Assembly (NCBI GenBank): GCA_047456305.1
Contig: CP179888.1
Coordinates: 317,307 to 381,306 of the forward strand
DNA: 64,000 nucleotides
Origin: Candidatus Nealsonbacteria bacterium
GTDB lineage: Bacteria; Patescibacteriota; Minisyncoccia; Minisyncoccales; CAZKCU01
Direction: 5' to 3'
The notes under the pieces are model-generated. The model had not been told where the DNA came from. It saw only the letters and a program-made list of their open reading frames with translations, and did no database searches. Positions 90-57,159 of the stretch are shown here, piece by piece. The translations under genes and the position numbers were made by a program. Position 1 is the first letter of the stretch, and each line of letters starts with the position of its first letter.

Positions 90-123
90 GGTCGAAGAAC
101 ATTCGTTCTTCTCCAGCTTCGCT
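90..123 (+). repeat. Family A repeat, copy A1 (forward, 3'-truncated)
   Basis: GGTC-GAAGAAC ATTC GTTCTTC-TCCAGCTTCGC, ends 3 nt before ATG at 126; matches hairpin-1 plus linker of copies A3/A4/A7. Confidence 0.6.
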
Positions 124-125
124 AT

Positions 126-335
126 ATGAAGAAAAAATCAGCCATTACAAAGGAAATGACTATTGGTGAGGTTATCAAAAAATACCCAAAGGCAGTTTTT
201 GTTTTTATTGATTATGGACTCCATTGCGTTGGTTGTCCGATGGCAATACCAGAGACAATTGAAGAGGCAACTAAACTTCATCAGATTGACCTAAAAAAGT
301 TTTTGAAAGATTTAAATAAAGCAATTAAAAAATGA
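126..335 (+). CDS. small DUF1858-like redox disulfide domain protein
   Basis: 69 aa ORF with central HCVGCP motif and the overall pattern of hybrid-cluster-associated small proteins. Confidence 0.55.
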   Translation: MKKKSAITKEMTIGEVIKKYPKAVFVFIDYGLHCVGCPMAIPETIEEATKLHQIDLKKFLKDLNKAIKK

Positions 336-361
336 AATTTTCCATTCAGACCAAAAAATTA

Positions 362-383
362 CCCCCACCAAAAATGGTGGGGG
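362..383 (+). terminator. stem-loop terminator after ORF 126..335
   Basis: CCCCCACCA AAAA TGGTGGGGG, a 9-bp perfect stem followed by TT-rich sequence. Confidence 0.5.
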
Positions 384-389
384 TTAAGT

Positions 390-418
390 TTGAGCTAAAA
401 GCAAGTGTTTAGTATAAT
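390..418 (+). promoter_or_regulatory. sigma70-like promoter for yjbQ-like gene
   Basis: TTGAGC, 17-nt spacer, TATAAT; the -10 box ends 8 nt before ATG 427, implying a very short leader or none. Confidence 0.4.
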
Positions 419-426
419 TAATTAAT

Positions 427-831: not shown

Positions 832-872
832 GTCTGTCGGTTAAATTATCAAATTGCTATTAATTTTGACTG

Positions 873-3259: not shown

Positions 3260-3261
3260 CT

Positions 3262-4350: not shown

Positions 4351-4361
4351 ATTGGGATGTT

Positions 4362-4547: not shown

Positions 4548-4552
4548 TTTAC

Positions 4553-4600
4553 AAGCTTCCGTAGGAAGCGAAGTTTAAGAAGAGGATTTATCCTCTTTGC
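4553..4600 (-). repeat. Family A repeat, copy A2 (forward relative to rpmI)
   Basis: + strand AAGCTTCCGTAGGAAGC-GAAGTTTAA-GAAGAGGATTTATCCTCTT; lies between the infC 3' end and the rpmI ATG; hairpin 1 overlaps the last infC codons. Confidence 0.65.
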
Positions 4601-5102: not shown

Positions 5103-5120
5103 AGTTTTTAAGTTTTTGCG

Positions 5121-5519: not shown

Positions 5520-5520
5520 A

Positions 5521-5976: not shown

Positions 5977-6005
5977 TTTAGCAAAAATGTGTTAAATTAG
6001 AAGTA

Positions 6006-8230: not shown

Positions 8231-11109
8231 ATTTTCCTAAAATTGAGAAAAAAATCCTAAAATTCTGGCAAGAAAACAAGATTTTCGAAAAACTTAAAAA
8301 GAAAAACCAAGGGAAAAAGCGCTGGTCGTTTTTGGACGGACCGATTACTGCTAACAATCCTATGGGAGTTCATCATGCCTGGGGAAGAACCTATAAAGAC
8401 CTTTTTCAGAGATACAAGGCAATGCAGGGTTTTGACCAGAGATTTCAAAACGGTTTTGATTGTCAGGGTTTGTGGGTAGAGGTAGAAGTTGAGAAGGAGC
8501 TTGGATTCAAGAATAAAAAAGATATAGAGAAATACGGCATAGAAAAATTTGTCAAAAAATGCAAAGAGAGAGTTGAGAAATATTCGAAAATTCAAACAGA
8601 ACAATCAATCCGGCTGGGTCAATGGATGGATTGGGGGAATTCTTATTACACAATGTCTGATGAGAATAACTATGCTATTTGGTATTTCCTAAAAAAATGC
8701 CACAAAGAGGGATTTTTATATAAAGGCAGAGATGTTGTTCCCTGGTGCCCGAGATGTGGGACAGCCATTTCCCAACACGAAATTTTAACAGAAGAGTATA
8801 AAGAATTGACTCACAAATCAATATTTTTCAAGTTGCCAGTCCAAAACCTAAAGAAAACTTATTTTCTTGTCTGGACAACTACTCCCTGGACATTATCAGG
8901 CAATGTTGCAATAGCTATTCATCCTGATTTTGATTATGTAAAAGTAAAAGATAAAAAAGGCGACATTTTTATCTTACTTAAAGAAAAATCTGATTTAATT
9001 GAAGCTGGAGAAATAATAGAAACATTCAAGGGCAAGAAATTAGAGGGATTTGAATACGAGGGGTTGTTTGACGAATTGCCATCTGTAAAAGAAACCTTAG
9101 GCAGCTACAAGCATTCTGTAATTCTATGGAAAGAAGTAACCAAAGAAGAAGGAACTGGTATTGTTCATGTGGCGCCCGGCTGTGGCCAGGAGGATTTTCA
9201 ATTAGCTAAAGAATTTAAACTGCCTGTTATTGACTTAACTAATGATGAAAGCAGCTACCTAAAGGGTTTTGGAGAGTTGAGTGACAAGTTTGTTGGCGGA
9301 GAAGAAGTAAGAGAATTGATTTTTGAAGATTTAAACCAAAAAGATAGAGTTTTTAAAATTGAAGGCTATAAACACCGCTATCCAATTTGCTGGCGCTGCC
9401 AGTCAGAATTGATTTTCCGCTTGGTTGATGAATGGTATATTTCAATGGCAAAGTTAAGAGAAAAACTGATGAAAATTGCCAAAAAAATAAAATGGATTCC
9501 TCCCTTTGGTCTGGACAGGGAATTGGATTGGTTAAAAAATATGCAAGATTGGTTGATTTCTAAAAAACGTTATTGGGGATTAGCTTTACCGATTTATGAA
9601 TGCCCAGACTGCGGAAACTTTGAGGTAATCGGTTCCAAAAAAGAATTAAAAGAAAAAGCGGTTAAGGATTGGCAAGAGTTTGAAGGTCATTCTCCTCACC
9701 GACCCTGGATAGATAAAGTAAAGATTAAATGTTCCAAATGTGGCAAAATAGTTTCTCGAATTCCTGATGTTGGTAATCCTTGGTTAGATGCCGGGATTGT
9801 GCCCTTCTCTACTCTAAAGTATTTTTCTGACCGGGAATTGTGGCAAAAATGGTTTCCGCCTGAATTTATTTGCGAATCTTTCCCGGGTCAATTCAAAAAT
9901 TGGTTTTATTCCCTTATTGTAATGAGTACTGTATTAGAGGAAGTTACTCCAGTGAAGACAATCTTTGGCTACGCCACAGTAGTCGATGAAAAGGGAGAAG
10001 AAATGCACAAATCCAAAGGAAATGTTATTTGGTTTGATGAGGCAGTTGAAAAAATAGGGGCTGATCTGATGCGTTGGATGTATGTTAGACAAAATCCAGT
10101 CTATAATCTAAGGTTTGGCTACAAGATTGCCAAAGAAACCCAAAGGAAACTTTTGACACTGTGGAATAGCTACACCTTTTTTGAGACGTATGTCTCAAAA
10201 AAGGAAATCCCAAATCCCAAATCCCAAATCCCAAAATCTAAAAATATCTTAGATAAGTGGATTAATTCAAGATTGAATAGGTTGATTACTCAAGTTACCC
10301 AAAGCTTAGATAATTTTGATGCTGCCAGAGCAAGTTCAGCCATTGAAGATTTCTTCATTAATGATTTATCTCTTTGGTATATAAGGAGATCAAGAAAGAG
10401 ATTTCAAAGACCAAGAAAGGAAGAAGAAAAAGATGAAGCAGCCGGTACTCTTTATTTTATTCTTTTGACTCTGGCAAAACTGATTGCTCCGATGATGCCA
10501 TTTCTGGCTGAAGAAATTTATTTGGGCTTGAAAACAAAAAACGAACCCCAGTCTATCCATCTTTGCGACTGGCCAAAATATTATGAAAAAGCAATTGACG
10601 ATAATTTAGAGGAGAAAATGAGAAAAGTTCGGGAGATTATAACTAAGGTTTTAGCTAAAAGAACTGAACTTGGAATTAAAGTGAGGCAGCCCCTACAGGG
10701 ATTAAGAATTACGAATTATAAATTACGAAGGGAGAAAGAATTACTGGAGTTGATTAAGGACGAGGTAAATGTAAAAGAAATTACTTTTGGCAAAACATTA
10801 AAATTGGATACAAAGATTAGCAAAGAGTTAAAAGAGGAGGGTCAGGTTCGAGAATTTATCCGACAAGTTCAGCAATTACGAAAAAACGCCAAACTCACCC
10901 CAAAAGATAAAATTATTATTTATTGCGAATGCCAGGAGAAACTGAAAAAAGTTTTACAAAAAAATAAAAAAGACATTTTAACAGAAACCAAGGCCAAAGA
11001 TTTTATCTTAGGAGGAAAAATTAAAAAGGCATTTAATGCGGAAAAGGAAATGCAAATCGGTCAACAAAAATTATGGTTAGGGATTAAAAAAAATCAAATA
11101 GTATGTTGA
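8221..11109 (+). CDS. ileS: isoleucine--tRNA ligase
   Basis: 962 aa; P..NNPMGVHH (HIGH), KMSKS variant (MHKSKGN), CP1 editing domain, zinc-ribbon cysteines. Confidence 0.95.
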   Translation: MSIDFPKIEKKILKFWQENKIFEKLKKKNQGKKRWSFLDGPITANNPMGVHHAWGRTYKDLFQRYKAMQGFDQRFQNGFDCQGLWVEVEVEKELGFKNKKDIEKYGIEKFVKKCKERVEKYSKIQTEQSIRLGQWMDWGNSYYTMSDENNYAIWYFLKKCHKEGFLYKGRDVVPWCPRCGTAISQHEILTEEYKELTHKSIFFKLPVQNLKKTYFLVWTTTPWTLSGNVAIAIHPDFDYVKVKDKKGDIFILLKEKSDLIEAGEIIETFKGKKLEGFEYEGLFDELPSVKETLGSYKHSVILWKEVTKEEGTGIVHVAPGCGQEDFQLAKEFKLPVIDLTNDESSYLKGFGELSDKFVGGEEVRELIFEDLNQKDRVFKIEGYKHRYPICWRCQSELIFRLVDEWYISMAKLREKLMKIAKKIKWIPPFGLDRELDWLKNMQDWLISKKRYWGLALPIYECPDCGNFEVIGSKKELKEKAVKDWQEFEGHSPHRPWIDKVKIKCSKCGKIVSRIPDVGNPWLDAGIVPFSTLKYFSDRELWQKWFPPEFICESFPGQFKNWFYSLIVMSTVLEEVTPVKTIFGYATVVDEKGEEMHKSKGNVIWFDEAVEKIGADLMRWMYVRQNPVYNLRFGYKIAKETQRKLLTLWNSYTFFETYVSKKEIPNPKSQIPKSKNILDKWINSRLNRLITQVTQSLDNFDAARASSAIEDFFINDLSLWYIRRSRKRFQRPRKEEEKDEAAGTLYFILLTLAKLIAPMMPFLAEEIYLGLKTKNEPQSIHLCDWPKYYEKAIDDNLEEKMRKVREIITKVLAKRTELGIKVRQPLQGLRITNYKLRREKELLELIKDEVNVKEITFGKTLKLDTKISKELKEEGQVREFIRQVQQLRKNAKLTPKDKIIIYCECQEKLKKVLQKNKKDILTETKAKDFILGGKIKKAFNAEKEMQIGQQKLWLGIKKNQIVC
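10206..10240. repeat. 7-nt periodic tandem array H2 inside ileS
   Basis: AATCCCA x4 (perfect) then AAATCTA; translated IPNPKSQIPKSK. Confidence 0.8.
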
Positions 11110-14984: not shown

Positions 14985-16352
14985 ATGACTGATTTGATGT
15001 CAAAAATTATATCTTTGTGTAAAAGAAGAGGATTTATTTTTCAATCCTCAGAGATTTACGGTGGGGTAGAGGCTCTTTGGGATTATGGGCCGTTAGGTTC
15101 GCTTTTGAAAAATAATATTAAAGAGGAGTGGTTAAAAAGATTTGTCCAAAAAAGAGATAATATAGTTTTGATTGACGGTTCAGTTTTAATGCACCCTAAT
15201 GTCTGGAAAGCTTCTGGGCATCTGGAACATTTTACTGATCCTCTTGTTGAGTGTAAAAATTGTCATTCCCGTTATCGGGCTGATTATATGACAGATGGTC
15301 GTTTTGTAAAACAGGGTAAAGCAAAAACTAAAAATCAGTGTCCTCAATGCGGCGACAAAGATTTCACTCCGCCTCGTCAATTTAATCTGATGTTCAAAAC
15401 ATTTTTGGGGCCGGTAAAAGATAAAGCCCACCAAACTTACTTAAGACCAGAGACCGCTCAATCAATGTTTACTAATTTTAAGCAAATTCAAGAGTCAATG
15501 CGCCTTAAAATTCCCTTTGGGATTGCCCAGATAGGAAGGTCTTTCCGAAACGAAATAACTACCGGCAATTTTACTTTCCGTTCCCGAGAATTTGATATTG
15601 CCGAGATTGAATATTTTGTTAAACCAGGCGCTGATGAAAAATGGTTTGATTTTTGGGTCAATGAATGGGAAAAATTCTTTTTAGATTTAGGGTTAAAAAA
15701 GAAAAATCTTCGCCGATATGAGCATCCAAAAACAGCCCTTTCTCATTATTCAAAAAAGACGATAGATATTGAATACAAATTTCCTTTTGGCTGGTCAGAA
15801 CTTGCCGGCATTGCCAATCGAACTGATTTTGATTTGAAACAACATTCAAAATATTCGGGCCGAGATTTAAGCTATTTCGATGAGGATTCTGGTAAAAGAT
15901 ATATTCCTTATGTAATTGAACCAACTTTAGGCGTTGAAAGACTTTTACTCGCTTTATTAATTGATGCTTATCAAGAAATAAAAGGCGGTCGAACAAAAAC
16001 TACTAAAGCCGCTAAAGAAACTGAAATTTTATTGAAGCTTCACAAAGCTTTAGCTCCAATAAAAGTTGCTGTTTTACCTTTGGTGAGGAATAAACCAGAA
16101 TTGGTGAAAAAAAGCAAAGAAGTTTATCAACTTTTAAAGCCTCATTTTACTTGTCAATATGATGAACTCGGCTCAATTGGTCGTCGCTATCGACGAACGG
16201 ATGAGATTGGATGTCCTCTTGCAATTACGATTGATTTCGAAACTTTAAAGCAAAAAGATGTTACCATCCGTGATCGCGATACAATGAAGCAGGAAAGAGT
16301 AAAGATTTCAGATTTAATAAATGTTTTAAAAGAGAAATTAAATACTCAATGA
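14985..16352 (+). CDS. glyQS: glycine--tRNA ligase (homodimeric type)
   Basis: 455 aa; class II motifs (YLRPETAQ, GRSFRNE, GVERL). Confidence 0.95.
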   Translation: MTDLMSKIISLCKRRGFIFQSSEIYGGVEALWDYGPLGSLLKNNIKEEWLKRFVQKRDNIVLIDGSVLMHPNVWKASGHLEHFTDPLVECKNCHSRYRADYMTDGRFVKQGKAKTKNQCPQCGDKDFTPPRQFNLMFKTFLGPVKDKAHQTYLRPETAQSMFTNFKQIQESMRLKIPFGIAQIGRSFRNEITTGNFTFRSREFDIAEIEYFVKPGADEKWFDFWVNEWEKFFLDLGLKKKNLRRYEHPKTALSHYSKKTIDIEYKFPFGWSELAGIANRTDFDLKQHSKYSGRDLSYFDEDSGKRYIPYVIEPTLGVERLLLALLIDAYQEIKGGRTKTTKAAKETEILLKLHKALAPIKVAVLPLVRNKPELVKKSKEVYQLLKPHFTCQYDELGSIGRRYRRTDEIGCPLAITIDFETLKQKDVTIRDRDTMKQERVKISDLINVLKEKLNTQ

Positions 16353-16397
16353 ATCTTCGATTCATTTCGATCTTCTATAAATTAAAAATTTATCTCG

Positions 16398-17663
16398 ATG
16401 TATAAAAAAACCACTCTTAAAAACGGTTTGAGAATTATTACTGTTCCCTTGCGAAACACCCAGGCAATAACTGTTTTGATATTAGTAGCTACTGGTTCGA
16501 AGTATGAAAAAAAAGAGATAAATGGTATTTCTCATTTCTTAGAACATATGGCTTTTCGGGGAACAAAAAAACGTCCCCAGACCTTAGACATTGCCAAAGA
16601 ATTAGATAGGGTAGGCGGCCTTTATAATGCCTTTACCGGTAAAGAATTTATGGGATTTTGGGTAAAAGTTGATTCAAAGCATTTTGACTTAGCAACCGAT
16701 GTTTTATCTGATATGATTTTTAATTCTCTCTTTAAAGAAAAAGAAATTGGAAAGGAAAAAAAGACGATTATAGAAGAAATTAATATGTATTTAGATACTC
16801 CCCAGAGTTATGTTTTGGAACTTTGGGAAAAACTTTTATACGGAAACCAACCAGCTGGCTGGATGATTGCCGGTCAAAAGGAAACGGTAAAAAGAATTTC
16901 CAGAAAAAATATTTTGGATTATTTTAGAAAACAATTTAGTGCAGAAAATGTAGTCGTTTCCTTAGCTGGAAATTTTAAAACTAAAGAAGCCGTTTCTAAA
17001 ATAAAAATTTTTTTTGAGAAATTCAAAAAGACCAAAACTTTATCCAAAAAACCGGTAATTGAAAGACAAAAATCTCCTCAGATTTTACTTCAGACAAAAG
17101 AAACCGATCAGACCCATTTAACCTTAGGGGTCCGAGCTTATAACATTTTTAAACCCGAAAGATACCCCCTCGCTGTTTTAGCAAACCTCTTGGGAGGAAT
17201 TATGAGTTCCCGTCTTTTTATTGAAATTAGGGAAAAGAGAGGAATGGCTTATTATATTAAGACTATTCCTGAAAATTATAGTGATACAGGATATTTGGTA
17301 ACTCATGCTGGAATTGACAATAAAAGAACGGAGGAGGCAATAAAAATCATTTTGAAAGAATATAAAAATTTAAAAGAGAAAAAAGTTCCGAAAGAAGAAC
17401 TTCAGAAAGTCAAAGACAATATTAAGGGCCATCTTTATTTAGGTTTGGAAACCTCTGATGCCTGGGCTAGTTATCTTGGCGTTCAGGAAATTTTAAAAAG
17501 GAAAATTTCTACTCCCGCTCAAGAATGCAAAATGATTGATAAAGTCAGCCAAGATGATATTCTAAAAGTAGCCAGAGATATTTTTCAACCCAAAAAATTA
17601 AATTTAGCTCTCATCGGCCCATTTAAGGATAAAAATCAGTTCCAAAAATTATTAAAGCTGTAG
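16398..17663 (+). CDS. M16 family zinc peptidase (insulinase-like)
   Basis: HFLEHMAF inverted zinc motif (HxxEH); 421 aa. Confidence 0.8.
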   Translation: MYKKTTLKNGLRIITVPLRNTQAITVLILVATGSKYEKKEINGISHFLEHMAFRGTKKRPQTLDIAKELDRVGGLYNAFTGKEFMGFWVKVDSKHFDLATDVLSDMIFNSLFKEKEIGKEKKTIIEEINMYLDTPQSYVLELWEKLLYGNQPAGWMIAGQKETVKRISRKNILDYFRKQFSAENVVVSLAGNFKTKEAVSKIKIFFEKFKKTKTLSKKPVIERQKSPQILLQTKETDQTHLTLGVRAYNIFKPERYPLAVLANLLGGIMSSRLFIEIREKRGMAYYIKTIPENYSDTGYLVTHAGIDNKRTEEAIKIILKEYKNLKEKKVPKEELQKVKDNIKGHLYLGLETSDAWASYLGVQEILKRKISTPAQECKMIDKVSQDDILKVARDIFQPKKLNLALIGPFKDKNQFQKLLKL

Positions 17664-17668: not shown

Positions 17669-17727
17669 TAGGCGAAGAGAACTTCGTTCTCTTCTTCACC
17701 TTCGCTTTCGCTGCGCGAAAGCTCGGT
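17669..17727 (+). repeat. Family A repeat, copy A3 (forward, most complete)
   Basis: TAGGC-GAAGAGAAC TTC GTTCTCTTC-TTCACCTTCGC-TTTCGC TGC GCGAAA-GCTCGGT; ends 2 nt before ATG 17730. Confidence 0.8.
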
Positions 17728-25043: not shown

Positions 25044-25097
25044 TAGGCGATGAGGACTTCGTCCTCATCTTCACCTTCGCTTCTGCGGAAGCTCGGT
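25044..25097 (+). repeat. Family A repeat, copy A4 (forward)
   Basis: TAGGC-GATGAGGAC TTC GTCCTCATC-TTCACCTTCGC-TTC TGCG GAA-GCTCGGT; 27 nt before ATG 25125. Confidence 0.8.
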
Positions 25098-25124
25098 AAT
25101 TAATTAATATTGTAGTTTAAATAT

Positions 25125-33624: not shown

Positions 33625-33692
33625 AACTTCCCTCCTTCGTTATGCTATTAAATGTCTTTTATTATATTAGCAAATTGATTTTTTAAAAATTG

Positions 33693-33776
33693 TGCCGGAG
33701 GTGGGACTTGAACCCACAAGCCCTTGCGGACAGTAGATTTTGAATCTACCCTGTTTTCCAATTTCAGCACTCCGGC
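33693..33776 (-). tRNA. tRNA-Leu (anticodon CAA), class II with long variable arm
   Basis: Reverse complement GCCGGAG..CTCCGGCA acceptor stem; anticodon stem-loop GTAGA-TTCAAAA-TCTAC; variable arm GTCCGCAAGGGCTTGT; T-arm GTGGGTTCAAGTCCCAC; CCA not encoded. Confidence 0.9.
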
Positions 33777-39221: not shown

Positions 39222-39280
39222 AAGCCGAGGCGAGGGGTGATTTAAGCTCCCTCTATTCCTTGTCTCGGCTTTTCTATTTA
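39222..39280 (+). terminator. stem-loop after the small ORF
   Basis: AAGCCGAG..(inner hairpin GAGGG/CCCTC)..CTCGGCTT followed by TTCTATTTATT. Confidence 0.4.
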
Positions 39281-39295: not shown

Positions 39296-39355
39296 CCAGA
39301 GCACATAAATATTATTTATGTGCTCGGCCGAGCACATATGTTATATGTGCTCTGG
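39296..39355. repeat. Family D hairpins D2 and D3 (tandem, mutually complementary)
   Basis: CCAGAGCACATAAAT ATT ATTTATGTGCTCGG then CCGAGCACATAT GTT ATATGTGCTCTGG; overlaps the last 13 codons and the stop of pth. Confidence 0.7.
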
Positions 39356-39906
39356 GCTTTTCCTAAACCTGATTTTAAAGAAAGCTCAATCGCCTCAACC
39401 GTTTTTTTAATCACTTCTTTAACTATCTTTTCTTCTTCTTTGTTAAATTTTTGAAGAACAAATTTTTCGGGATTTTTAGGTTTGCCAAACTTAGGTTGAA
39501 TGCCAATTCTAAACCTAACAAAATTTTTAGTTTCAATTTCTTTAATTATTGATTTCACTCCTTTGTGGCCAGCCGAACCACGATTTTTGACAATTCGGAT
39601 TTTACCCAGGGGCAAATCAATGTCGTCGTGAATTACTAAAACATTTGACATTTGACACTTAACACTTAACACTACTTTTTTTACTGCTTGGCCAGAGAGA
39701 TTCATAAAAGTAAGCGGTTTTGCGAGTAAAACTTTTTGGCTGTTAATCTCACCTTTACTAATTTCAGCCTGTAATTTTTTTATATTTTTCCAATCCGAAA
39801 ATTTGTCAATTGTTAATTGTAAATTGTCAATTGTCATAAAGCCAAGATTGTGGCGAGTTTTTTGAAATTTTTCTCCGGGATTACCCAGACCAAGGATAAT
39901 TCTCAT
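39316..39906 (-). CDS. pth: peptidyl-tRNA hydrolase
   Basis: LGLGNPG..TRHNLGF, MNLSG, GSAGHKG motifs. Confidence 0.9.
   Translation of the reverse strand: MRIILGLGNPGEKFQKTRHNLGFMTIDNLQLTIDKFSDWKNIKKLQAEISKGEINSQKVLLAKPLTFMNLSGQAVKKVVLSVKCQMSNVLVIHDDIDLPLGKIRIVKNRGSAGHKGVKSIIKEIETKNFVRFRIGIQPKFGKPKNPEKFVLQKFNKEEEKIVKEVIKKTVEAIELSLKSGLGKAQSTYNICARPST
39642..39676. repeat. 7-nt periodic tandem array H10 inside pth
   Basis: CATTTGA CATTTGA CACTTAA CACTTAA CACTACT; translated (minus strand) VVLSVKCQMSN. Confidence 0.8.
39800..39834. repeat. 7-nt periodic tandem array H11 inside pth
   Basis: AATTTGT CAATTGT TAATTGT AAATTGT CAATTGT; translated (minus strand) TIDNLQLTIDKF. Confidence 0.8.
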
Positions 39907-39966: not shown

Positions 39967-40009
39967 CATCTTGTTGCAAAAATAAAAAATTTAACTTATA
40001 CTTAAAAAA

Positions 40010-40065
40010 GGCAGAGAGGACTTCGTCCTCTTCTTAACCTTCGCCATTATAAATAAAAGCTCGGT
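40010..40065 (+). repeat. Family A repeat, copy A7 (forward)
   Basis: AAGGC-AGAGAGGAC TTC GTCCTCTTC-TTAACCTTCGC-CATTATAAATAAAA-GCTCGGT; ends 2 nt before ATG 40068; hairpin 2 is replaced by AT-rich sequence. Confidence 0.75.
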
Positions 40066-41982: not shown

Positions 41983-42309
41983 ATGGATTGTCTTTTTTGC
42001 AAAATCATTAAAAAGGAATTACCATCTGAAATCGTTTACGAAGACGATAAGGTTTTGGCTTTTAAGGATATTAACCCTCGGGCTCCCGTACACTTTTTAA
42101 TTGTTCCTAAAAAGCACATTCCTTCAGTAGACCATGTTGAGTTTCAAGACAAAGAGTTGATGGGAGATTTAATTTTAGCTGCCCAAAAAATCGCTAAAGA
42201 AAAAAAATTGAGAGGTTACAGATTACAGATTAATGTTGGCCGCTCAGCTGGCCAAATAGTTGATCACTTACACTTGCATTTACTTAGCCGAGCCGCAGGC
42301 GAAAGATGA
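41983..42309 (+). CDS. HIT family hydrolase
   Basis: CLFCKI start and histidine triad HLHLHLL. Confidence 0.85.
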   Translation: MDCLFCKIIKKELPSEIVYEDDKVLAFKDINPRAPVHFLIVPKKHIPSVDHVEFQDKELMGDLILAAQKIAKEKKLRGYRLQINVGRSAGQIVDHLHLHLLSRAAGER

Positions 42310-42334
42310 AGAAGAGATTTATCTCTTCGCCTAG
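42288..42334 (-). repeat. Family A repeat, copy A8 (reverse)
   Basis: CCGAGC-CGCAGG-CGAAAGATGAA-GAAGAGAT TT ATCTCTTC-GCCTAG; supplies the last codons (SRAAGER) and the stop of the HIT gene; 13 nt before the rpsU ATG. Confidence 0.7.
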
Positions 42335-45628: not shown

Positions 45629-46554
45629 AAACTGCTACTAAAATTAAAGTAGTTGGTGTGGGCGGTTCTGGTTCAAATGCTGTATCGAGAATGATGAAAT
45701 GTAAAATTAAGGGGGTAGATTTGATTGCCATAAATACTGATGCCCAGGATTTAAAAAAAACCAGAGCCCATTTGAAACTTCGGATTGGTAGAAATTTAAC
45801 CAAAGGATTGGGGACAGGAATGAATCCGGAAATCGGCAGAAAGGCTGCCGAAGAAAATAAAGAAGAAATTTCAGAAATTTTAAAAGGTTCAGATATGATT
45901 TTTATTACTGGAGGATTTGGTGGAGGGACTTGCAGTGGGGCAGCGCCAATTGTTGCCCAGATAGCAAAAGGAACTGGAGCCTTGACGATTGCTATTGTAA
46001 CCAAACCTTTTTCTTTTGAAGGTGCTTTTCGCCAGAGGATTGCTGAAAATGGCTTAAAAAAGTTAAAAGAAAAAGTTGATACCTTAATTTCTATTCAGAA
46101 TGATAGACTGCTGGAAATTTTAGACCCCCAAACTTCAGTTTTGAATGCTTTTTGGGTTTGTGATGAAATACTGAGGCAGGCTGTCCAGGGAATTTCCGAT
46201 TTAATTGTTCTTCCGGGGATTATTAATGTTGATTTTGCTGATATTAAAGCAATTATGGAAAATTCAGGGTCAGCTTTGTTTGGGATAGGCAAGGCCAAAG
46301 GGGAAAGGAGAGCGACAGCTGCCGCTCTATCTGCTATTAGTTCGCCCTTACTTAATACATCGATAATTGGAGCAAAGGGAGTTTTATTTAATATTAGCGG
46401 AGACCGAAATATCAGTCTTTCCGAAATAAATGAGGCAGCCAAGGTTATTACTGAGAATGTATCTCCGGATGCCAAAGTAATTTTTGGAGCAGTTCAGTCA
46501 GAAATTTTAAGAAAAGGAGAAATAAAAGTGACTGTAATTGCTACTGGGTTTTGA
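45625..46554 (+). CDS. ftsZ: cell division protein FtsZ
   Basis: GVGGSGSNAV, tubulin signature GGFGGGTCSG, NTDAQ. Confidence 0.95.
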   Translation: MKTATKIKVVGVGGSGSNAVSRMMKCKIKGVDLIAINTDAQDLKKTRAHLKLRIGRNLTKGLGTGMNPEIGRKAAEENKEEISEILKGSDMIFITGGFGGGTCSGAAPIVAQIAKGTGALTIAIVTKPFSFEGAFRQRIAENGLKKLKEKVDTLISIQNDRLLEILDPQTSVLNAFWVCDEILRQAVQGISDLIVLPGIINVDFADIKAIMENSGSALFGIGKAKGERRATAAALSAISSPLLNTSIIGAKGVLFNISGDRNISLSEINEAAKVITENVSPDAKVIFGAVQSEILRKGEIKVTVIATGF

Positions 46555-46674: not shown

Positions 46675-49600
46675 ATGAAAAATAAAATTACAAAAGTTTA
46701 CCCGCCAAAATTTTCCGAAAGAAAACTTAAGCGGGTGAAAAAAAGAGACGGAGAGATTGTTGAATTTGATCAAGCCAGAATTGAAGAAGCGATTTTTAAA
46801 GCCTTAACATCCTCTGGTCAAGGTGATGGAAAGCGGGCGAAAAAAGTTTCCAAAAGAGTAGTCCAAATTTTAAATCGCCGTTTCAAGAAAACAGAAATTC
46901 CTCAGGTTGAGCAAATCCAGGATATTGTAGAAGAAGTTTTAATTTTAGAAGGCCTGGTTGAAGCTGCCAAGGCTTATATTTTATATAGAGAACAGAGAAG
47001 AAGAATAAGGGAAGCAACAATGGTGGCTGAAGAAGCAGTAGATAGAATTGATCAATACTTAGAAAAATTGGATTGGGAAGTTCAGGAGAATGCTAATATG
47101 GCATTTTCTTTACAAGGGCTGAATCATTATGGGGTTTCTTACATTGTTAAAAAATATTGGCTAAATAAAATCTATCCAAAAGAAATCAGGGAAGCGAATG
47201 AAGGCGGAGACTTGCATATTCATAATTTAGATACTTTAGGTCCTTACTGTGTTGGTTGGGACCTTTATGATTTATTACTTAAAGGATTTGGCGGGGTTTC
47301 AGGAAAAATAGAATCAAAACCAGCCAAACATTTTCAAGCAGCTCTGGGCCAGGTAGTGAATTTTATGTATACACTTCAAGGGGAGGCCGCTGGCGCAATC
47401 GCTTTTTCAAATTTTGATACTCTCTTAGCCCCTTTTATAAAATATGATAACTTGAGTTATCCCCAGGTAAAGCAAGCTCTTCAGGAATTCATGTTCAATA
47501 TGGCTATACCCACTCGGGTCGGATTTCAGTGTGTATCAGAGGATACTGAAATATTAACTCCAGAAGGGTGGAAAGGATATGATGATGTTGAAAGGGGAGA
47601 TATTATTAAAACCTTTAATTTAAAAACAAGGGAAATAGAAGACAAAAAAGTAGATTTTATTTTCAAGAGAAGATATCAAGGAATAATGTATCGATTAAGA
47701 AATAGAATTCAAGATCAGTTAATCTCGCCGCATCATAGAGTTTTGAGAAGAAAATTCAACACCCCAAATTATACCTTACAACCAATTGAAGAAGTTCTAA
47801 AATTGAAATCTCCAATTGTTGTTCCTATCGCTGGTAAAAACTCTGATCCTGAGGCAAAAATTTCTGATGAGCAGATAAAATTGATGGCTTGGATAATAAG
47901 CGAAGGGACTGTGGAAAGACCGGGAAAATATAGATGTTGCCATAGAGTAAGCATTTATCAATCAAAAATTAAAAATAGAAAAAATTACGATGAGATAATT
48001 AACCTATTGAAGCAGTTTAAATTAAATTATGCTAACCATCCAGCTACCTCTTTAGGTGAAGAAGTTCAACAGATTAGATTAAATGCCGAAAGTTCAAGAG
48101 AAATTCATCAGTGGTTTAGAACTCGAGAAAATATTCATTTTATCCCTGATTATTTATTAAATTTAAGCGAAAGACAATCGAGATTATTTTTAGAAACTTA
48201 TTTAAAAGGAGATGGAACTAAAGAATGGAAAATAGCCGCTAGCGATTTAGATTTATTAAGTGACCTTCAAACTATTATTGTTAATTCTGGGTATGGATTT
48301 ACAGTTTTGAAAAGAAAACCAACTGATATCGGTAAAAAGAATATTTACATTTTAAGAATAATTCGCCATCCAGAAACTTATATCACAAAAATAAAGAAAG
48401 TAAATTACGAAGGAATAATATGGTGTCCTCATACAGAAAATGGAACAATAATTGCCAGAAGAAAAGGAAAGGTGTTTATTACAGGAAATTGCCCTTTTAC
48501 TAATATTACCATAGATCTTAAACCCTCTCCGGCTTTCGCTAAACAACCAGTAATTATTGGTGGTAAACCCCAAAAAGAAACCTATGGAGAATTTGAAGAA
48601 GAAATGAAAATGTTTAATAAAGCTCTCTATGAAACAATGTTAGAAGGAGATAAATCAGGAAGGCCTTTTTCTTTTCCGATCCCCACTATTAATATTACTA
48701 AAGATTTTCCTTGGGATGAGCCAGCTTTTGACGGAATTTTTGAAGCTTCAGCTAAATACGGAACAAATTATTTTGCCAATTATATAAATTCGGAAATGGA
48801 CCCCTCTGATGTAAGAAGTATGTGTTTTCCAGCTACCACCAAAATAATTTATAAAGAAGGAAAACACAGTCGCTATCAAAGAACAACTATTAGAAATTTA
48901 GTTAACAATTGGAATCCCCAAAAAGAATTTTCGCTTTTAATAAATGGAAAATGGGTAAAAATTACTGATGCCTTTAAACTCAAAAATAGTTCAGGAAAAA
49001 TTGTTAAAGTTACTTTAAAAAATGGAGAAGTTGTGAAGATGACTCTGGATCATCCAGCGATGATTATAGAAGGCGGAAAGTTGAAACAAGTCTCAGCAAA
49101 AAATTTAAAAAAAGGTAATATTATTCCGATAGCTAAGCAGGGCTACGAAGGTAAATTAGGAGATTTTGAGCTGGGCAGATTTTTAGGTTTGTATATTTCT
49201 GAGGGAGGGGTAACAAAAGAAAATACAGTTTACTTCTCTTTTAATGAAAAAGAAAAAGAGTTTCAAAAATTTGTAAAAGAGATTGCAGAAAGAAGATTCG
49301 CCTTCCCGGTTCATATTACGAAAGACCCAAGATGGAAGACTATCCAGGTTTGGGTAAAAAGTAGAGCAGCGGTAGAATGGGTAAAGAAATTTTGTTCAGG
49401 CCAAACCGCTCCAGAGAAACGGCTTCTTTCTTCTTTATATGGAATGTCAAGAGATTTTAGATTAGGAGCATTAATTGGAATTTATCAAGGAGATGGTTAT
49501 GAAAGAGATGTAGAATTTCACACCACTAATAAAAAATTAAGAAATGATACTGCGGATTTAGCTAGAAGTGTGGGAATTAACTATACAAAAAGAATTAATC

Positions 49601-50826
49601 CTAATAATAGAAAAGGGGAAATACAATTTACTTCTTATGTGTTACGACTTTGCAGGGATAGTTTAAAAGAACTAATACCTCATTTTGAAAACATAAGAAC
49701 GTCAGCATCTTCAATCTTTAAAGATTTTGGCGAGTTTTATGGGATCAAAATTAAATCAGTCAAAGTTCAAAATTATCGCGCTCCGGTTTATGATTTTGAA
49801 GTAGATTCAAAAGAGCACCTTTTTCAATTAGCTAACGGAGTAATCACTCACAATTGTTGCCGTTTGCGATTGAATTTGAAAGACCTTTACAATCGGGGCG
49901 GAGGAGGATTATTCGGGAGTGGCTCGTTAACTGGCAGTATCGGCGTGGTAACCATTAACTTGCCTCGAATTGGCTATCTTTCCAAAACTAAAAAAGATTT
50001 TTTTGAGAGATTGGAAAAAATGATGGATATAGCCAAAGATAGTTTGGAAATAAAAAGAAAGACAGTTGAGAATTTTATTGAAAAAGGTTTGTATCCCTAT
50101 TCCAAATTCTATTTATCAGGAATTAAAAAAATGAGAGATAATTATTGGGGCAATCACTTTTCAACTATTGGCCTGGTTGGAATGAATGAAGCTCTTTTAA
50201 ATTTCATTGGAGAGAATACTGGCTCAAAAAGAGGAAGAAAATTCGCCCTGGAAGTTTTAGATTTTATGAGAAAAAAATTAGTGAAATATCAAAAAGCGAC
50301 TGAAAATATTTACAATTTAGAACAAACACCAGCTGAGAGTACTGCTTATCGTTTAGCTTTAAAAGATAAAGAAAAATATCCAGAGATAATCACAGCTGGG
50401 ACAAAGAAAGTTCCTTATTATACAAATAGTACTCAGTTGCCGGTTAACTATACTGATGATATCTTTGAAGCCCTTAAACTCCAGGATGAAATCCAATGTA
50501 AATACACAGGAGGCAGTGTCCTCCATCTCTTTTTAGGCGAAAGAATTTCTGATATCCAAACAGTGAAAAATTTAATTAAGAAAGTTTTTGAAAATTTCAG
50601 ATTACCTTATATTACTTTAACTCCTACCTTTTCAATTTGCCCGGTTCATGGCTATCTATCCGGAGAGCATTTTTATTGTCCAAAATGCACAATTAAACAG
50701 CTCTGTGAAGTTTACACAAGAATAGTGGGATATTTGAGGCCCCTGTCACAGTTCAATACCGGAAAGCAGCAGGAATTCAAAGAGAGAAAAGAATTTGAAA
50801 TTCCTAAAGTTGCAGTTTTAAAATAA
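46675..50826 (+). CDS. nrdD: anaerobic ribonucleoside-triphosphate reductase (class III), interrupted by two inteins
   Basis: N-terminal ATP-cone (VKKRDGEIVEFD), RSM|CCRLRL active-site cysteine motif, C-terminal Zn cysteines (CPVHG..CPKC) and glycyl-radical motif RIVGYLRP; extein about 719 aa. Confidence 0.9.
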   Translation: MKNKITKVYPPKFSERKLKRVKKRDGEIVEFDQARIEEAIFKALTSSGQGDGKRAKKVSKRVVQILNRRFKKTEIPQVEQIQDIVEEVLILEGLVEAAKAYILYREQRRRIREATMVAEEAVDRIDQYLEKLDWEVQENANMAFSLQGLNHYGVSYIVKKYWLNKIYPKEIREANEGGDLHIHNLDTLGPYCVGWDLYDLLLKGFGGVSGKIESKPAKHFQAALGQVVNFMYTLQGEAAGAIAFSNFDTLLAPFIKYDNLSYPQVKQALQEFMFNMAIPTRVGFQCVSEDTEILTPEGWKGYDDVERGDIIKTFNLKTREIEDKKVDFIFKRRYQGIMYRLRNRIQDQLISPHHRVLRRKFNTPNYTLQPIEEVLKLKSPIVVPIAGKNSDPEAKISDEQIKLMAWIISEGTVERPGKYRCCHRVSIYQSKIKNRKNYDEIINLLKQFKLNYANHPATSLGEEVQQIRLNAESSREIHQWFRTRENIHFIPDYLLNLSERQSRLFLETYLKGDGTKEWKIAASDLDLLSDLQTIIVNSGYGFTVLKRKPTDIGKKNIYILRIIRHPETYITKIKKVNYEGIIWCPHTENGTIIARRKGKVFITGNCPFTNITIDLKPSPAFAKQPVIIGGKPQKETYGEFEEEMKMFNKALYETMLEGDKSGRPFSFPIPTINITKDFPWDEPAFDGIFEASAKYGTNYFANYINSEMDPSDVRSMCFPATTKIIYKEGKHSRYQRTTIRNLVNNWNPQKEFSLLINGKWVKITDAFKLKNSSGKIVKVTLKNGEVVKMTLDHPAMIIEGGKLKQVSAKNLKKGNIIPIAKQGYEGKLGDFELGRFLGLYISEGGVTKENTVYFSFNEKEKEFQKFVKEIAERRFAFPVHITKDPRWKTIQVWVKSRAAVEWVKKFCSGQTAPEKRLLSSLYGMSRDFRLGALIGIYQGDGYERDVEFHTTNKKLRNDTADLARSVGINYTKRINPNNRKGEIQFTSYVLRLCRDSLKELIPHFENIRTSASSIFKDFGEFYGIKIKSVKVQNYRAPVYDFEVDSKEHLFQLANGVITHNCCRLRLNLKDLYNRGGGGLFGSGSLTGSIGVVTINLPRIGYLSKTKKDFFERLEKMMDIAKDSLEIKRKTVENFIEKGLYPYSKFYLSGIKKMRDNYWGNHFSTIGLVGMNEALLNFIGENTGSKRGRKFALEVLDFMRKKLVKYQKATENIYNLEQTPAESTAYRLALKDKEKYPEIITAGTKKVPYYTNSTQLPVNYTDDIFEALKLQDEIQCKYTGGSVLHLFLGERISDIQTVKNLIKKVFENFRLPYITLTPTFSICPVHGYLSGEHFYCPKCTIKQLCEVYTRIVGYLRPLSQFNTGKQQEFKERKEFEIPKVAVLK
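47530..48489 (+). mobile_element. intein 1 in nrdD (320 aa, LAGLIDADG homing endonuclease type)
   Basis: Starts CVSEDTEILT (block A), block B SPHHRV, LAGLIDADG-like MAWIISEGT and LETYLKGDGT, ends VFITGN with +1 Cys (CPFTN); penultimate residue is Gly, not His. Confidence 0.8.
48823..49854 (+). mobile_element. intein 2 in nrdD (344 aa, LAGLIDADG homing endonuclease type)
   Basis: Starts CFPATTKIIY, block B TLDHPAMI, LAGLIDADG-like FLGLYISEGG and LIGIYQGDGY, ends GVITHN with +1 Cys; removal restores the RSMCCRL motif. Confidence 0.85.
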
Positions 50827-51606: not shown

Positions 51607-51615
51607 CATTAAATA

Positions 51616-53178: not shown

Positions 53179-53200
53179 AAAATAAGATAAAATAAAAGAT

Positions 53201-54514: not shown

Positions 54515-55407
54515 TTGCAATTTCAGCTTATTTCATTTTGGCAATTGTTTTTTTGGTGGACAAATATCTTTTGGTTGGCCCTATTCCTAACCCTAAAGTT
54601 TATACTTTTTATATAGGTACTCTGGGAATTTTTGTTCTAATTTTAGTTCCTTTTGTCGGTTTTTATATTCCGGAGCTTCCCCAAATTATTTTAAGCCTTT
54701 CGGCTGGAGCTATTTTTATCTATGGCCTTTTTTGGTTTTATAAAGCCTTGCGAGATTTTGAGGCTTCTCGAGTGGTGCCGGCAATTGGCGGAATTTTACC
54801 TCTCTTTACTTTGGGATTAGTTTATATTTTCTCAGCCGGAAAAGAAACTCTTGGCTATTTTGAATTTTTTGCTTTTATTTTACTTATTCTGGGAAGTATT
54901 TTAATTACCTATGAAAGAAGCAAAAAAATTTCTTTTCAAAGCCTCCGAATTTCTGCTATTGCTGCTTTTTTTCTGGCTCTATCTTTTGTTTTAACCAAAT
55001 ACGTTTATTTAGCCCAGCCATTTTGGTCAGGTTTTATTTGGATAAGAATTGGCGGATTCCTGATGGCCATTTTTTCCTTTCTTTTATTCAAAGAAATTAG
55101 GGAAGAAATTTTCAAGAAAAAAGTTAGTTTTAAAAAGAGAACCATTGGAATTTTCCTTTCAAACCAAGCTATGGGAGCTGGAGCCGGTATCTTGCAAAAC
55201 TGGGCAATCTTTTTAGCCCCCTTGGTTTATGTGGCAATAATTAATGCTCTTCAAGGAATACAATACGCTTTTTTACTGGTTTTTATCATTTTCCTTTCTT
55301 TAAAATTCCCTAAAATCTTAAAAGAGGAAATTTCAAGAAAACTCCTTCTCCAAAAAATTATCGCAATTTTACTAATTGGAGGGGGGTTGGTATTATTAAC
55401 AATATGA
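54499..55407 (+). CDS. polytopic membrane protein, DMT/EamA-like
   Basis: 302 aa, about 10 TM segments arranged as two similar halves. Confidence 0.4.
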   Translation: MSWILIAISAYFILAIVFLVDKYLLVGPIPNPKVYTFYIGTLGIFVLILVPFVGFYIPELPQIILSLSAGAIFIYGLFWFYKALRDFEASRVVPAIGGILPLFTLGLVYIFSAGKETLGYFEFFAFILLILGSILITYERSKKISFQSLRISAIAAFFLALSFVLTKYVYLAQPFWSGFIWIRIGGFLMAIFSFLLFKEIREEIFKKKVSFKKRTIGIFLSNQAMGAGAGILQNWAIFLAPLVYVAIINALQGIQYAFLLVFIIFLSLKFPKILKEEISRKLLLQKIIAILLIGGGLVLLTI

Positions 55408-56399
55408 TTAAAAAGATTATGTTTTATATTATATTTTTTATTTTAATCACTATTTTTATTCTTTTTCTTTTCTTTTTTGTAGGTTCGTCGCCCGAGGCAG
55501 AAGAAATTATTTGGGGAGTCGATTTTTCCCAAAAACATGCCGAAAATTTAGGACTTGACTGGAAAGAAACTTATTCCTCTTTGCTTGATGATTTAGGGGT
55601 AAAAAACTTGAAAATAGCTGTTCCTTGGGATATATTTGAACCAGAACCAAAAAAATATAATTTTGAGTCTTTGGATTGGCAAATCAAAAAAGCTGAAGAA
55701 AAAGGGGCAAGTCTCCTTTTAGTAATTGGGATGAAAACCCCCCGTTGGCCAGAGTGTCACGTTCCGGAATGGGCGAAAAATTTGGAAAAATCTCAACAGC
55801 AGGAAAGAATTTTAGAGATGCTTGAAGAAATCGTTTTAAGATATAAAGATTTAGCGGCAATAAAATATTGGCAAGTTGAAAATGAGCCTCTTCTTGCTTT
55901 TGGAGATTGTCCCTGGAGAGATAGAGAATTTTTAGAAAAGGAAGTAAATTTAGTAAAAACATTAGATAACCAAAAAAGACCAGTTATTGTTTCTGCTCCG
56001 GGAGAGCTGTCTTTTTGGATCAGGACAGCTAAAATAGGGGATATAGTAGGAACTACTCTCTATAAAAAAGTCTGGTTTCGGCAAGGAGGTTTTTATCTTA
56101 CCTATCCTCTTCCTTCAGTTTTCTATTGGAGAAAAAGCCAAATTATAAAAAAACTATTTAATAAAGAAGTGATTTGCATTGAACTTCAGGCTGAACCTTG
56201 GGGACCAAACCTGCTTTATGATTCACCGATTGAAGAGCAGAAAAAGACAATGGATTTAGAACAATTTAAAAAAAATGTCGAATGGGCTAAAAGAACCGGA
56301 CTAAAAGAATTCTATCTATGGGGAGCTGAATGGTGGTATTGGCTAAAGGTAAAACAAAATGACTCCCGAATTTGGGAAGAAGCAAGAAAATTATTTTAA
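55404..56399 (+). CDS. membrane-anchored clan GH-A glycoside hydrolase-like protein
   Basis: N-terminal TM helix; WQVENEP acid/base motif typical of TIM-barrel GH-A families. Confidence 0.5.
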   Translation: MIKKIMFYIIFFILITIFILFLFFFVGSSPEAEEIIWGVDFSQKHAENLGLDWKETYSSLLDDLGVKNLKIAVPWDIFEPEPKKYNFESLDWQIKKAEEKGASLLLVIGMKTPRWPECHVPEWAKNLEKSQQQERILEMLEEIVLRYKDLAAIKYWQVENEPLLAFGDCPWRDREFLEKEVNLVKTLDNQKRPVIVSAPGELSFWIRTAKIGDIVGTTLYKKVWFRQGGFYLTYPLPSVFYWRKSQIIKKLFNKEVICIELQAEPWGPNLLYDSPIEEQKKTMDLEQFKKNVEWAKRTGLKEFYLWGAEWWYWLKVKQNDSRIWEEARKLF

Positions 56400-57134
56400 A
56401 TGAATTTAAGCATCATTATTCCAACCTTAAACGAAGAAGATTATTTACCTTTATTATTGGAATCAATTAAGAAGCAAAATTTTAACGGAGATTATGAAAT
56501 AATTGTAGCTGATGCCAACTCAAAAGATAGAACAATAGAAATTGCCAAAAAATACGGCTGTAAAATAACAAAAGGTGGACTTCCAGCTAAAGGAAAAAAT
56601 GAAGGAGCAAAAATAGCTAAAGGTGATTTACTTTTATTCTTAGATGCTGATACAATTTCTCTGCCGCCTAAATTCTTAGATACGATTTTAGAGAAATTTA
56701 GAGCAAGAGATTTAGGTATAGTTTCTTTTTCACTTTCCCCCAAGGAAAATAAATTTGATAAATTTGCTTATGGTCTTTATAATTTTTGGGCAAGATTTAC
56801 CCAGGGTTTTTTGCCCCATGCTGCTCAAGCTATTTTGATTAAAAAAAAGGTTCATCAAGTTGTAGGAGGATTTGATGAAGAAATAAAAATTGCCGAGGAT
56901 CATTTTTATGCCAGGAAAGCTGCAAAATTTGCTAAATTTCGCTTTATTAATCTTCCAGTTTTAATTTCTTCTCGGAGATTTGAGAGAGACGGAAGATTCA
57001 AAACTTATCTGAAATATCTTTTAGTCGGGCTTCATTTGTTTTTTTTGGGACCAATTAAATCAGATATTTTTAGATATAGGTTCGGGTACCATTCAAAAAA
57101 TCAAAAACCGAGCTTCCGAAGGAAGCGAAGGTGA
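56400..57134 (+). CDS. family 2 glycosyltransferase
   Basis: LSIIIPTLNEE, DADT (DxD) and EDH motifs. Confidence 0.75.
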   Translation: MNLSIIIPTLNEEDYLPLLLESIKKQNFNGDYEIIVADANSKDRTIEIAKKYGCKITKGGLPAKGKNEGAKIAKGDLLLFLDADTISLPPKFLDTILEKFRARDLGIVSFSLSPKENKFDKFAYGLYNFWARFTQGFLPHAAQAILIKKKVHQVVGGFDEEIKIAEDHFYARKAAKFAKFRFINLPVLISSRRFERDGRFKTYLKYLLVGLHLFFLGPIKSDIFRYRFGYHSKNQKPSFRRKRR

Positions 57135-57159
57135 AGAAGAGAACAAAGTTCTCTTCGAC
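57107..57159 (-). repeat. Family A repeat, copy A9 (reverse)
   Basis: ACCGAGC-TTCC GAA GGAA-GCGAAGGTGAA-GAAGAGAAC AAA GTTCTCTTC-GAC; encodes the tail PSFRRKRR and the stop of the GT2 gene; 24 nt before the htrA ATG. Confidence 0.8.

Follow-up and report, generated by a model that had tools for sequence, protein, structure and literature searches.

Family A, a previously undescribed family of small two-hairpin insertion elements in Nealsonbacteria-like bacteria

Rickettsia palindromic elements (RPEs) are short palindromic selfish repeats of a reduced genome and are translated as extra surface peptides, and the attC sites of integrons are read as folded single strands. To our knowledge, none of the BOX, Correia and ERIC repeats is known for routine in-frame insertion. 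RPEs, reportedly described by Ogata and colleagues in 2000, are said to be ~100–150 bp long, to belong to an alphaproteobacterial lineage, and to lie in frame within housekeeping genes as well as in spacers. Here we describe Family A, a repeat with nine copies (A1–A9) in a 64,000-nucleotide stretch of a Candidatus Nealsonbacteria genome (contig CP179888.1, positions 317,307 to 381,306; 34% G+C). This whole stretch is referred to as the window, and its own coordinates are used throughout. Family A is a real, previously undescribed family of ~55-base two-hairpin insertion elements in Nealsonbacteria-like bacteria of the Candidate Phyla Radiation (CPR). It is best explained, with a probability of roughly 0.72, as a non-autonomous selfish insertion element that has spread through the small genomes of these bacteria.

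The Family A unit reads A-GGCGAWGAG-hairpin 1-TCTTCACCTTCGC-hairpin 2-GCTCGG-T, or its reverse complement, with GGCGA, hairpin 1 (hp1), the linker TTCACCTTCGC, hairpin 2 (hp2) and GCTCGGT following one another in that order. Units are ~48–66 nt long, with modal sizes of 54 and 57. The 5′ end is (T)AGGC (frequencies T.44, A.65, G.86, G.76, then C), after which hp1 begins. Nothing upstream of the leading (T)A is conserved, and a promoter within the element or just upstream of it is rejected because the 45 nt before the element contain no conserved -10 or -35. Terminal inverted repeats are absent, AGGCGAWG and GCTCGGT not being mutually reverse complementary. Predicted folds place nearly all bases of the unit in the two hairpins, whichever strand is folded (z of -3.2 to -5.5 on both strands).

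The original prediction, made from the letters of the window alone, listed the nine copies and their modular layout, and both coordinates and layout are borne out by a check of the sequence and by a covariance model (R1) built from four window copies and four copies of other genomes. R1 retrieves nine of nine window copies, with scores from 85.5 down to 13.9 bits (E 1e-25 to 0.036). A tenth fragment had also been suggested at 16–32, but this stretch offers just a 4-bp hairpin beside the GGCGAAGA box and is not retrieved by R1 at E≤10; the fragment is not confirmed.

The stems vary greatly in sequence and keep their complementarity. When 150 matches are aligned, pairing is seen in 97.5% of stem cells, compared with 80% after shuffling and ~54% for slid partners. 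Thirteen of the 16 stem pairs are changed on both sides, and double-change cells number 419 against 106 expected; these pair counts uphold the compensatory stem changes reported originally. The ACC of the linker and the GGT of the 3′ box pair in 96.4% of cells (variants ATC/GAT, AAC/GTx and CCG/CGx) and probably form a third helix that extends hp2, a helix backed by the AAC/GT pairing of copy A2. A role of the linker as an anti-Shine-Dalgarno mimic (TCACCT) was dropped, since ACC pairs and covaries with GGT and the genome barely uses Shine-Dalgarno (SD) sequences. A strict set of 138 non-redundant copies, which also underlies the context statistics below, comprises 80 variants of hp1 and 73 of hp2 in 111 combinations; a relaxed set of 209 copies had false positives, such as the matches at window positions 46284 and 53246. 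Units also occur in head-to-tail arrays of two to three (L068 505–673, L159 2697–2856, L229 2839–3007, and in L136, L160, L199, L129 and L144, where L numbers denote related metagenome loci), joined as GCTCGG-TA/CA-GGCGA with a period of 54 or 57 nt. Some arrays lie within long open reading frames (ORFs) and code for repeated 18–19-residue peptides.

Family A is not confined to the window. A first pattern scan covered one genome per species; high-GC genomes gave swamping chance matches, and the nine matches in eight contigs of ≤43% GC are all true two-hairpin copies with differing stems. Seven of these eight low-GC contigs are titled Candidatus Saccharibacteria and, whatever the label, are probably close relatives of the window organism. 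An IorA 79% identical to that of the window is encoded on a contig that may be one of these eight. In a metagenome collection, a stricter pattern finds at least 130 exact copies in at least 120 loci, all of 32–42% GC. The covariance model gives 230 matches in 651 kb of related metagenome loci, a density that is biased upward because the loci were selected for having a copy; the window itself has ~1 copy per 6–7 kb (9–10 in 64 kb). Nothing similar was found in viral contigs searched with the strict pattern, in phage and plasmid records searched with BLAST, or in Rfam at permissive thresholds. The Rfam comparison yields only tRNA-Leu in the window, and the top sub-threshold match, on A3, reaches 18 bits against a cut-off of 40. 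The full-text literature on repeat elements of CPR/Patescibacteria and the paper on a closed Nealsonbacteria genome describe no such family, and the original statement that the repeat belongs to no described family thus agrees with Rfam and with the literature searched.

Evidence of insertion comes from related loci in which a copy is missing. Locus L242 is syntenic with the window over ~15–28 kb. Copy A3 (17670–17727, forward strand; 85.5 bits) is a full element consisting of A-GGCGAAGAG, hp1, TCTTCACCTTCGC, hp2 and GCTCGG-T, and sits between the stop codon of an M16 peptidase gene and the ATG (17730) of a perM-like gene for an AI-2E transporter; L242 lacks it, and there 5 nt (TAA-TTTTT-ATG) separate the peptidase stop from the transporter ATG. 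L242 likewise lacks A4 (25045–25097, forward strand; 78.6 bits), a full element in the spacer between the leucyl-tRNA synthetase (LeuRS) gene and iorA, and these genes are 3 nt apart in L242. Copy A5 (25845–25892, reverse strand; 23.3 bits) lies in frame within iorA, on the opposite strand (SRAVAKGKEEDLSSSP), and immediately adjoins a repetitive extragenic palindromic (REP) sequence. Locus L241 has neither A4 nor A5, and its A5 site holds the neighbouring REP only; the A5 insertion is therefore exactly 48 nt (16 codons) without target duplication. The alignment of the IorA family has a 16-residue insert at A5.

Further pairs of filled and empty sites were sought by searching joined flanks against all loci, and were found in L215 versus L166, L195 versus L177, L184 and L204 versus L136, and L126 versus L194 and L232; at the start of glyS it is the window site that is empty and L215 that is filled. 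Several pairs differ cleanly by A-GGCGA...GCTCGG-T, and the clean pairs show no target duplication. A TA target duplication of the mariner/IS630 type is rejected, the second flank base not being fixed. The empty sites are tightly coupled stop/start junctions in which the ATG and its context are already present, so the element lands beside start codons and does not create them.

Where both relatives carry the copy, hp1 and the boxes evolve more slowly than the flanks. Across seven orthologous copy pairs, the divergence is 13% in the flanks and 2% in hp1 together with the boxes (p = 7e-6). Four of the pairs have the same hp2, and in the other three it is wholly replaced. The orthologue of A4 in L179/L205 differs from A4 by one compensatory hp1 pair (GAGGAC/GTCCTC versus GAGAAC/GTTCTC).

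The copies occupy three habitats: 64 of the 138 strict copies are intergenic, 40 lie deep within long ORFs (~29%), and 34 overlap ORF ends. Among the 40 in-ORF copies, 29 run opposite to the ORF and 11 share its strand, eight of the latter in three tandem arrays. Core length is 1 modulo 3, such that the core plus 2 nt makes whole codons, in 37 of 40 in-ORF copies versus 33 of 64 intergenic ones (Fisher p = 1e-5). Since the in-ORF copies keep the frame, the ORFs are real and the element is translated through them; splicing and translational bypass are rejected on this ground. Five of the six reading frames of the element are stop-free. Recurrent peptides encoded by in-ORF copies are TELPKEAKVKKRTKFSSP, NRASEGSEGEEENxVLFA and GDEAKTSSSPSP, and further examples encoded by copies are TELPKEAKVKKR and NRASEGSEGEEE. 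An upstream ORF, leader peptide or N-terminal extension is rejected for the intergenic copies, whose hp2 lengths are not multiples of three and in which stops intervene.

The window has examples of each habitat, and two of them escaped the original prediction, namely the in-frame positions of A5 and A6 within iorA and topA and the gene ends supplied by A2, A8 and A9. A6 (35129–35180, reverse strand; 25.8 bits) is a diverged copy inside topA, in frame and on the same strand as the gene, and adds ~16 residues (DEANASSSRCARLRRA) to TopA; an alignment to the solved TopA 6ozw has a 16-residue gap at this position. The hp1 subtype of A6 recurs in L200. A9 (57107–57160, reverse strand; 78.4 bits) is a full 54-nt element that supplies a GT2 glycosyltransferase (ORF 56400–57134) with its final eight residues (PSFRRKRR) and its TGA stop. 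The diverged copy A8 (42287–42332, reverse strand; 31.0 bits), with a short hp2, similarly codes for the C-terminal residues (SRAAGER) and stop of a HIT-family protein (ORF 41983–42309; Pfam HIT). A2 (4553–4600, reverse strand; 46.5 bits) is diverged, with the linker TTAAAC and the 3′ box GCTTGT, and lies between infC and rpmI (Pfam IF3 and L35 matches for the two products); it gives infC its C-terminal codons and stop, and the rpmI ATG is 5 nt past the box. A7 (40009–40065, forward strand; 76.1 bits), a full element although its hp2 is decayed, occupies the spacer between the divergent genes pth and lepB and stands 2 nt 5′ of the lepB ATG (40068); the Pfam Peptidase_S26 match of the lepB product begins at residue 9. 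A1 (90–123, forward strand; 13.9 bits, E 0.036) is a marginal match, truncated to the 5′ box, hp1 and linker and without hp2; it ends 2 nt 5′ of the ATG (126) of a DUF1858 gene (Pfam DUF1858).

Nine IorA homologues (P0004, P0012, P0015, P0034, P0042, P0046, P0062, P0069 and P0112) show many other lineage-specific short in-frame inserts. These lie at several positions (e.g. PAFAKASAGK, ALQHGSEQ, GARAIGRVVAGWR and NFLLPPSLSLGRL) and look like translations of further repeat families.

The sequence that follows the element is distinctive and the sequence that precedes it is not. After GCTCGG the 3′ consensus is T (.78) W W W T (.69) G (.59) A (.89), and the 5′ flank is almost signal-free. An ATG is present at +4 to +6 in 50 of 176 copies and opens an ORF of at least 60 aa in 39 of those 50; a TTG at the same position does so in 2 of 24. 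The motif TWWWTGAW occurs 159 times in the window, 94% of these being intragenic and 3% at annotated starts, whereas ~31% of the strict copies stand exactly 3 nt before a real ATG. This roughly ten-fold excess at starts would be expected if a target preference acts together with the loss of intragenic insertions that do harm. The start-codon distances given by the original prediction hold for the ORFs of DUF1858 (126), L35 (4547), the AI-2E transporter (17730), IorA (25125) and signal peptidase I (40068). Its view that copies are concentrated at gene starts is right as far as this excess goes, but starts are one of three habitats, with ~29% of copies deep in coding sequence and others forming gene ends. 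The lack of a visible SD sequence that it noted for the downstream genes is a property of the whole genome and not of the genes next to Family A, since SD-like motifs precede only 7 of 54 window genes. Many window genes are joined stop-to-start within 3–10 nt, and the gene for ribosomal protein S1 is present in the related locus L190.

New copies land immediately 5′ of a sequence that fits T-W-W-W-T-G-A-W, a motif that coincides with the context (WWATGA) in which start codons usually stand in this AT-rich, largely SD-free genome. They persist where harm is low: some ~3 nt upstream of an ATG, some at the very 3′ ends of genes, where the element supplies the stop, and some in frame in protein loops. 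Survival in loops is aided by lengths divisible by three and by the lack of stops in five of the six frames. The mobilising machinery would need the hairpins, most likely in single-stranded DNA (ssDNA), as do HUH/Y1-type or other structure-reading recombinases. The 3′ flank resembles a degenerate start of the element itself (T-A-G-G-C-G-A-W-G), like the junction within a tandem array, which suggests that the target may be recognised by its likeness to such a junction. Selection for mobility among source copies would keep the stems complementary, perhaps helped by templated quasi-palindrome correction and by recombination among copies.

Several observations weigh against this reading. The copies have no linked transposase or recombinase, and ten genes between neighbouring copies, classified with Pfam, are all housekeeping genes. 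No autonomous element with Family A ends was found in the window plus ~0.85–0.9 Mb of loci, a search that falls short of whole genomes. Genes for REP-associated tyrosine transposases (RAYTs) at four loci carry other palindromes and never Family A. Although clean pairs of filled and empty sites lack target duplications, ~12% of copies have register-exact flanking direct repeats matching at 6 or more of 7 nt (z = 7) and of variable length. At A4 there is a duplication of 21–24 nt of the LeuRS end. Neither these repeats nor this duplication suits a simple HUH-type insertion, which would leave none. A4 stands between two versions of the final seven LeuRS codons plus stop, at 24997–25032 and 25098–25121, the upstream copy being functional. 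The two LeuRS-end copies differ at 8 of 24 nt, mostly synonymously, and the downstream one shows no difference from the native end of the gene in L241; the same arrangement is found in L179/L205, but with glmS downstream. The boxes are conserved over many genomes and change more slowly than the flanks, which could instead reflect a host function. Finally, the covariation counts rest on an alignment fitted to the model's own structure, and the gene calls on the metagenome loci come from a crude ORF caller.

A first alternative, possible but doubtful, takes the compensatory pattern as a mutational by-product of quasi-palindrome template switching and gene conversion in decaying repeats under no selection. 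The mismatches within the stems lend it weight, as G.T (27) is in no excess over A.C (34) and there is no strand asymmetry. G.U-type intermediates are very rare although A-U and G-C are about equally common at some pairs (AU 69, GC 65 and GU 2 in columns 14/75), and the replacement of whole hp2 modules between orthologous copies points the same way. The lack of a G.T excess, the rarity of G.U and the occurrence of copies in both orientations argue against a structure selected only in forward-strand RNA. The mismatch pattern fits either a DNA constraint with either strand folding, or templated quasi-palindrome correction or recombination between copies. The original interpretation of the covariation as a sign of a selected structure is partly right: the covariation stands, but an RNA function is not shown, and the mismatch counts and the hp2 swaps do not call for one. 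Mutation by itself leaves the conserved unpaired boxes and the slow change of hp1 and boxes unexplained; it accounts for the maintenance of stems and not for the spread of copies, and is compatible with a selfish element.

Less probable is a second alternative, in which Family A is moved by a so-far unrecognised CPR mechanism, or in which start-adjacent copies have been co-opted as compact modules that bridge stop to start or stabilise mRNA in a genome whose translation initiates independently of SD pairing. The lack of a linked transposase, the self-like target, the long and variable duplications in a minority of copies and the hypervariability of hp2 and its replacement as a module are points in favour of such a mechanism. 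The slow change of boxes and hp1 relative to the flanks is also of note here.

That Family A is foremost a cis-acting RNA of 5′ untranslated regions, whose hairpins 2–3 nt before the AUG control or enable initiation or translational coupling, or stabilise the mRNA, with mobility secondary, is unlikely. The exact spacing GCTCGG-T-NN-ATG in ~31% of strict copies and the real ORFs opened by 39 of 50 such ATGs would suit such an RNA, as would the very stable folds, the slow change of boxes and hp1 at orthologous sites and the tightly coupled junctions at empty sites; between co-directional genes the forward orientation is also favoured (48 versus 25). Yet orthologous genes in related contigs use the same ATG without the element, 29% of copies are intragenic, mostly on the opposite strand and with the frame kept, and tandem arrays exist. 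The stems show no asymmetry of G.U over A.C, the downstream genes are unrelated housekeeping genes, and an Rfam match is absent. The original prediction stressed gene starts and a role of an RNA in translation, and this is not the best reading of the evidence, although start-adjacent copies may have been co-opted.

An equally improbable proposal is that Family A is a REP/BIME-type element (BIME, bacterial interspersed mosaic element), an extra module of the REP system moved by the RAYT family of these genomes. The window does contain a RAYT-like Y1 transposase ORF (62559–63128 in the region 62530–63128, reverse strand), 5′-truncated such that it matches Pfam Y1_Tnp positions 38–119 of 121; it is without its N-terminal third and starts at an internal copy of its own REP palindrome. 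This palindrome, CTATTGATTTCGTAAATCGATAG, is present at 62530–62552 and 63060–63082, and an exact match, which is not Family A, lies at 25892–25914 (reverse strand) in frame within iorA (YRFTKSID), adjoining A5. The iorA REP is also present in L241 (~1650–1680) and L242 (~10770–10800), and REPs thus likewise invade coding sequence. A tblastn search with the window RAYT gives three homologues, in L231, L201 and L125, each flanked by its own differing palindromes, which also interrupt the same internal position. The RAYT proposal gains from the presence of these genes, from the full REP beside A5, from a conserved (T)AG before hp1 that recalls the GTAG of REPs, and from hairpins with no inverted terminal repeats and mostly no target duplication. 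However, the palindromes that flank and interrupt every RAYT gene differ from one another, whereas the Family A boxes are constant across the same genomes; copies are often intragenic and head-to-tail and not inverted REPIN doublets, and the RAYT of the window is truncated. The likeness to a REP arm noted originally in the 5′ flank of forward copies is limited to A5, which adjoins a full REP; elsewhere there is just the (T)A and a weak TTGA signal.

Least of all do the data favour intrinsic terminators or a protein-level repeat module selected for its peptide. A T run does follow 31 of 138 copies, and peptides such as TELPKEAKVKKRTKFSSP recur in ORFs. Yet 20 of those 31 copies lie deep within ORFs, where most copies run opposite to the gene and the T run corresponds to Lys-rich codons on the other strand; these copies are therefore not terminators. 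The lengths of intergenic copies span all three classes modulo 3, with at least three reading frames and both strands in use.

Other features of the window touch on the repeat or its neighbours. A candidate tenth copy (16342–16404, forward strand; 19.6 bits, E 5e-4) is AT-rich and has the same architecture, with AATGAATC/GATTCATT, TCGATCTTC, ATAAATT/AATTTAT and CTCG, and ends with CTCG abutting the ATG at the start of the M16 peptidase gene (16398). Directly 3′ of copies (L017, L069, L131, L150, L173, L178 and L194) there is often an AT-rich hairpin module, CAATGAATT-TTC-AATTCATT or a variant of it. The module, also present at window positions 16346–16405, resembles the candidate copy, which suggests mosaics of several modules. 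The motif GGCGAWGA is found 11 times in the window against 1.8 expected, and six of the 11 fall outside the family copies; these six (15707, 27711, 34716, 39167, 52272 and 58865) are without hairpins and are not members. Two more GC-rich palindromic structures beside the 3′ end of pth (39226–39274 and 39296–39360; e.g. CCAGAGCACATAAATATTATTTATGTGCTCGG / CCGAGCACATATGTTATATGTGCTCTGG) may belong to another repeat family. The sole Rfam or ARAGORN match in the window is a tRNA-Leu (CAA) gene at 33692–33776. An ORF of 1383 aa at 46675–50826 encodes NrdD, the anaerobic ribonucleotide reductase; intein sequence, with Pfam matches to Intein_splicing and LAGLIDADG_3, interrupts it and looks by eye like two inteins.

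The genomes of CPR bacteria (Patescibacteria) are among the smallest and most streamlined known, and a selfish element at ~1 copy per 6–7 kb in such a lineage, present even within topoisomerase I and IorA, would be a second and independent case of selfish DNA in protein-coding genes after Rickettsia, much smaller and of sharply defined structure. Gene calls and protein alignments of these organisms hold systematic 16–19-residue inserts and gene ends supplied by the element. Family A is also a ready marker of strain-level insertion polymorphism in metagenomes and a clean substrate with which to find an enzyme that moves structured ssDNA in CPR bacteria. If start-adjacent copies do affect expression, they would bear on translation start in bacteria without SD sequences.

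As the original prediction proposed, comparison with modular repeats of the BIME and BOX type is apt. Like the REP/BIME repeats of E. coli and the REPINs of Pseudomonas, Family A has hairpins, short boxes, variable complementary stems and modular mosaics, in genomes with Y1 (HUH) transposases. Its 5′ end, (T)AGGC, is similar to, though not the same as, the GTAG-like tetranucleotide of REPs. REP/BIME repeats are extragenic and usually flank a RAYT, whereas Family A flanks none, is often intragenic and forms head-to-tail doublets; it is excluded from the REPs as defined because it flanks no RAYT and is not extragenic. It shares with the pneumococcal BOX, the Correia repeats of Neisseria and ERIC a modular structure and a position near gene starts, where those repeats are often co-transcribed with their neighbours; Family A is shorter than these, has neither the terminal inverted repeats nor the fixed duplications of Correia and ERIC, and shows no sequence match to them. 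Neither is Family A a classical miniature inverted-repeat transposable element, because it has no inverted repeats and no fixed-length duplication. With integron attC sites it has in common short conserved boxes around a variable palindromic centre and a 3′ sequence that resembles the site's own core; unlike attC sites it forms no cassette arrays, and the contexts examined are conserved housekeeping operons and genes, no systematic search for an integrase having been made.

The closer parallels are with mobile and selfish palindromes. The palindrome-associated transposable elements derived from IS200/IS605, which transpose as single strands, also carry a hairpin close to each end, lack inverted terminal repeats, for the most part make no target duplication and have a short conserved target on a single side; Family A differs in having no same-ended autonomous partner among the sequences searched, dissimilar hairpins, a hypervariable hp2 and a minority of long flanking duplications. 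Its anatomy nevertheless most resembles that of single-strand, HUH-type elements. Like RPEs, it lies in frame within housekeeping genes and is translated through (37 of 40 in-ORF copies; the 16-residue inserts of IorA and TopA). It is set apart from them, by description, by its length of 48–66 nt, two hairpins, conserved linkers, one-sided target and habit of standing 3 nt before start codons, and a relationship in sequence is not expected. Family A is best classed as a selfish element of CPR bacteria that is very small, has two hairpins and is neutral to the reading frame, and as a kind it is closest to RPEs in its in-frame invasion of genes and to REP/BIME repeats and IS200/IS605 derivatives in its hairpins without inverted repeats.

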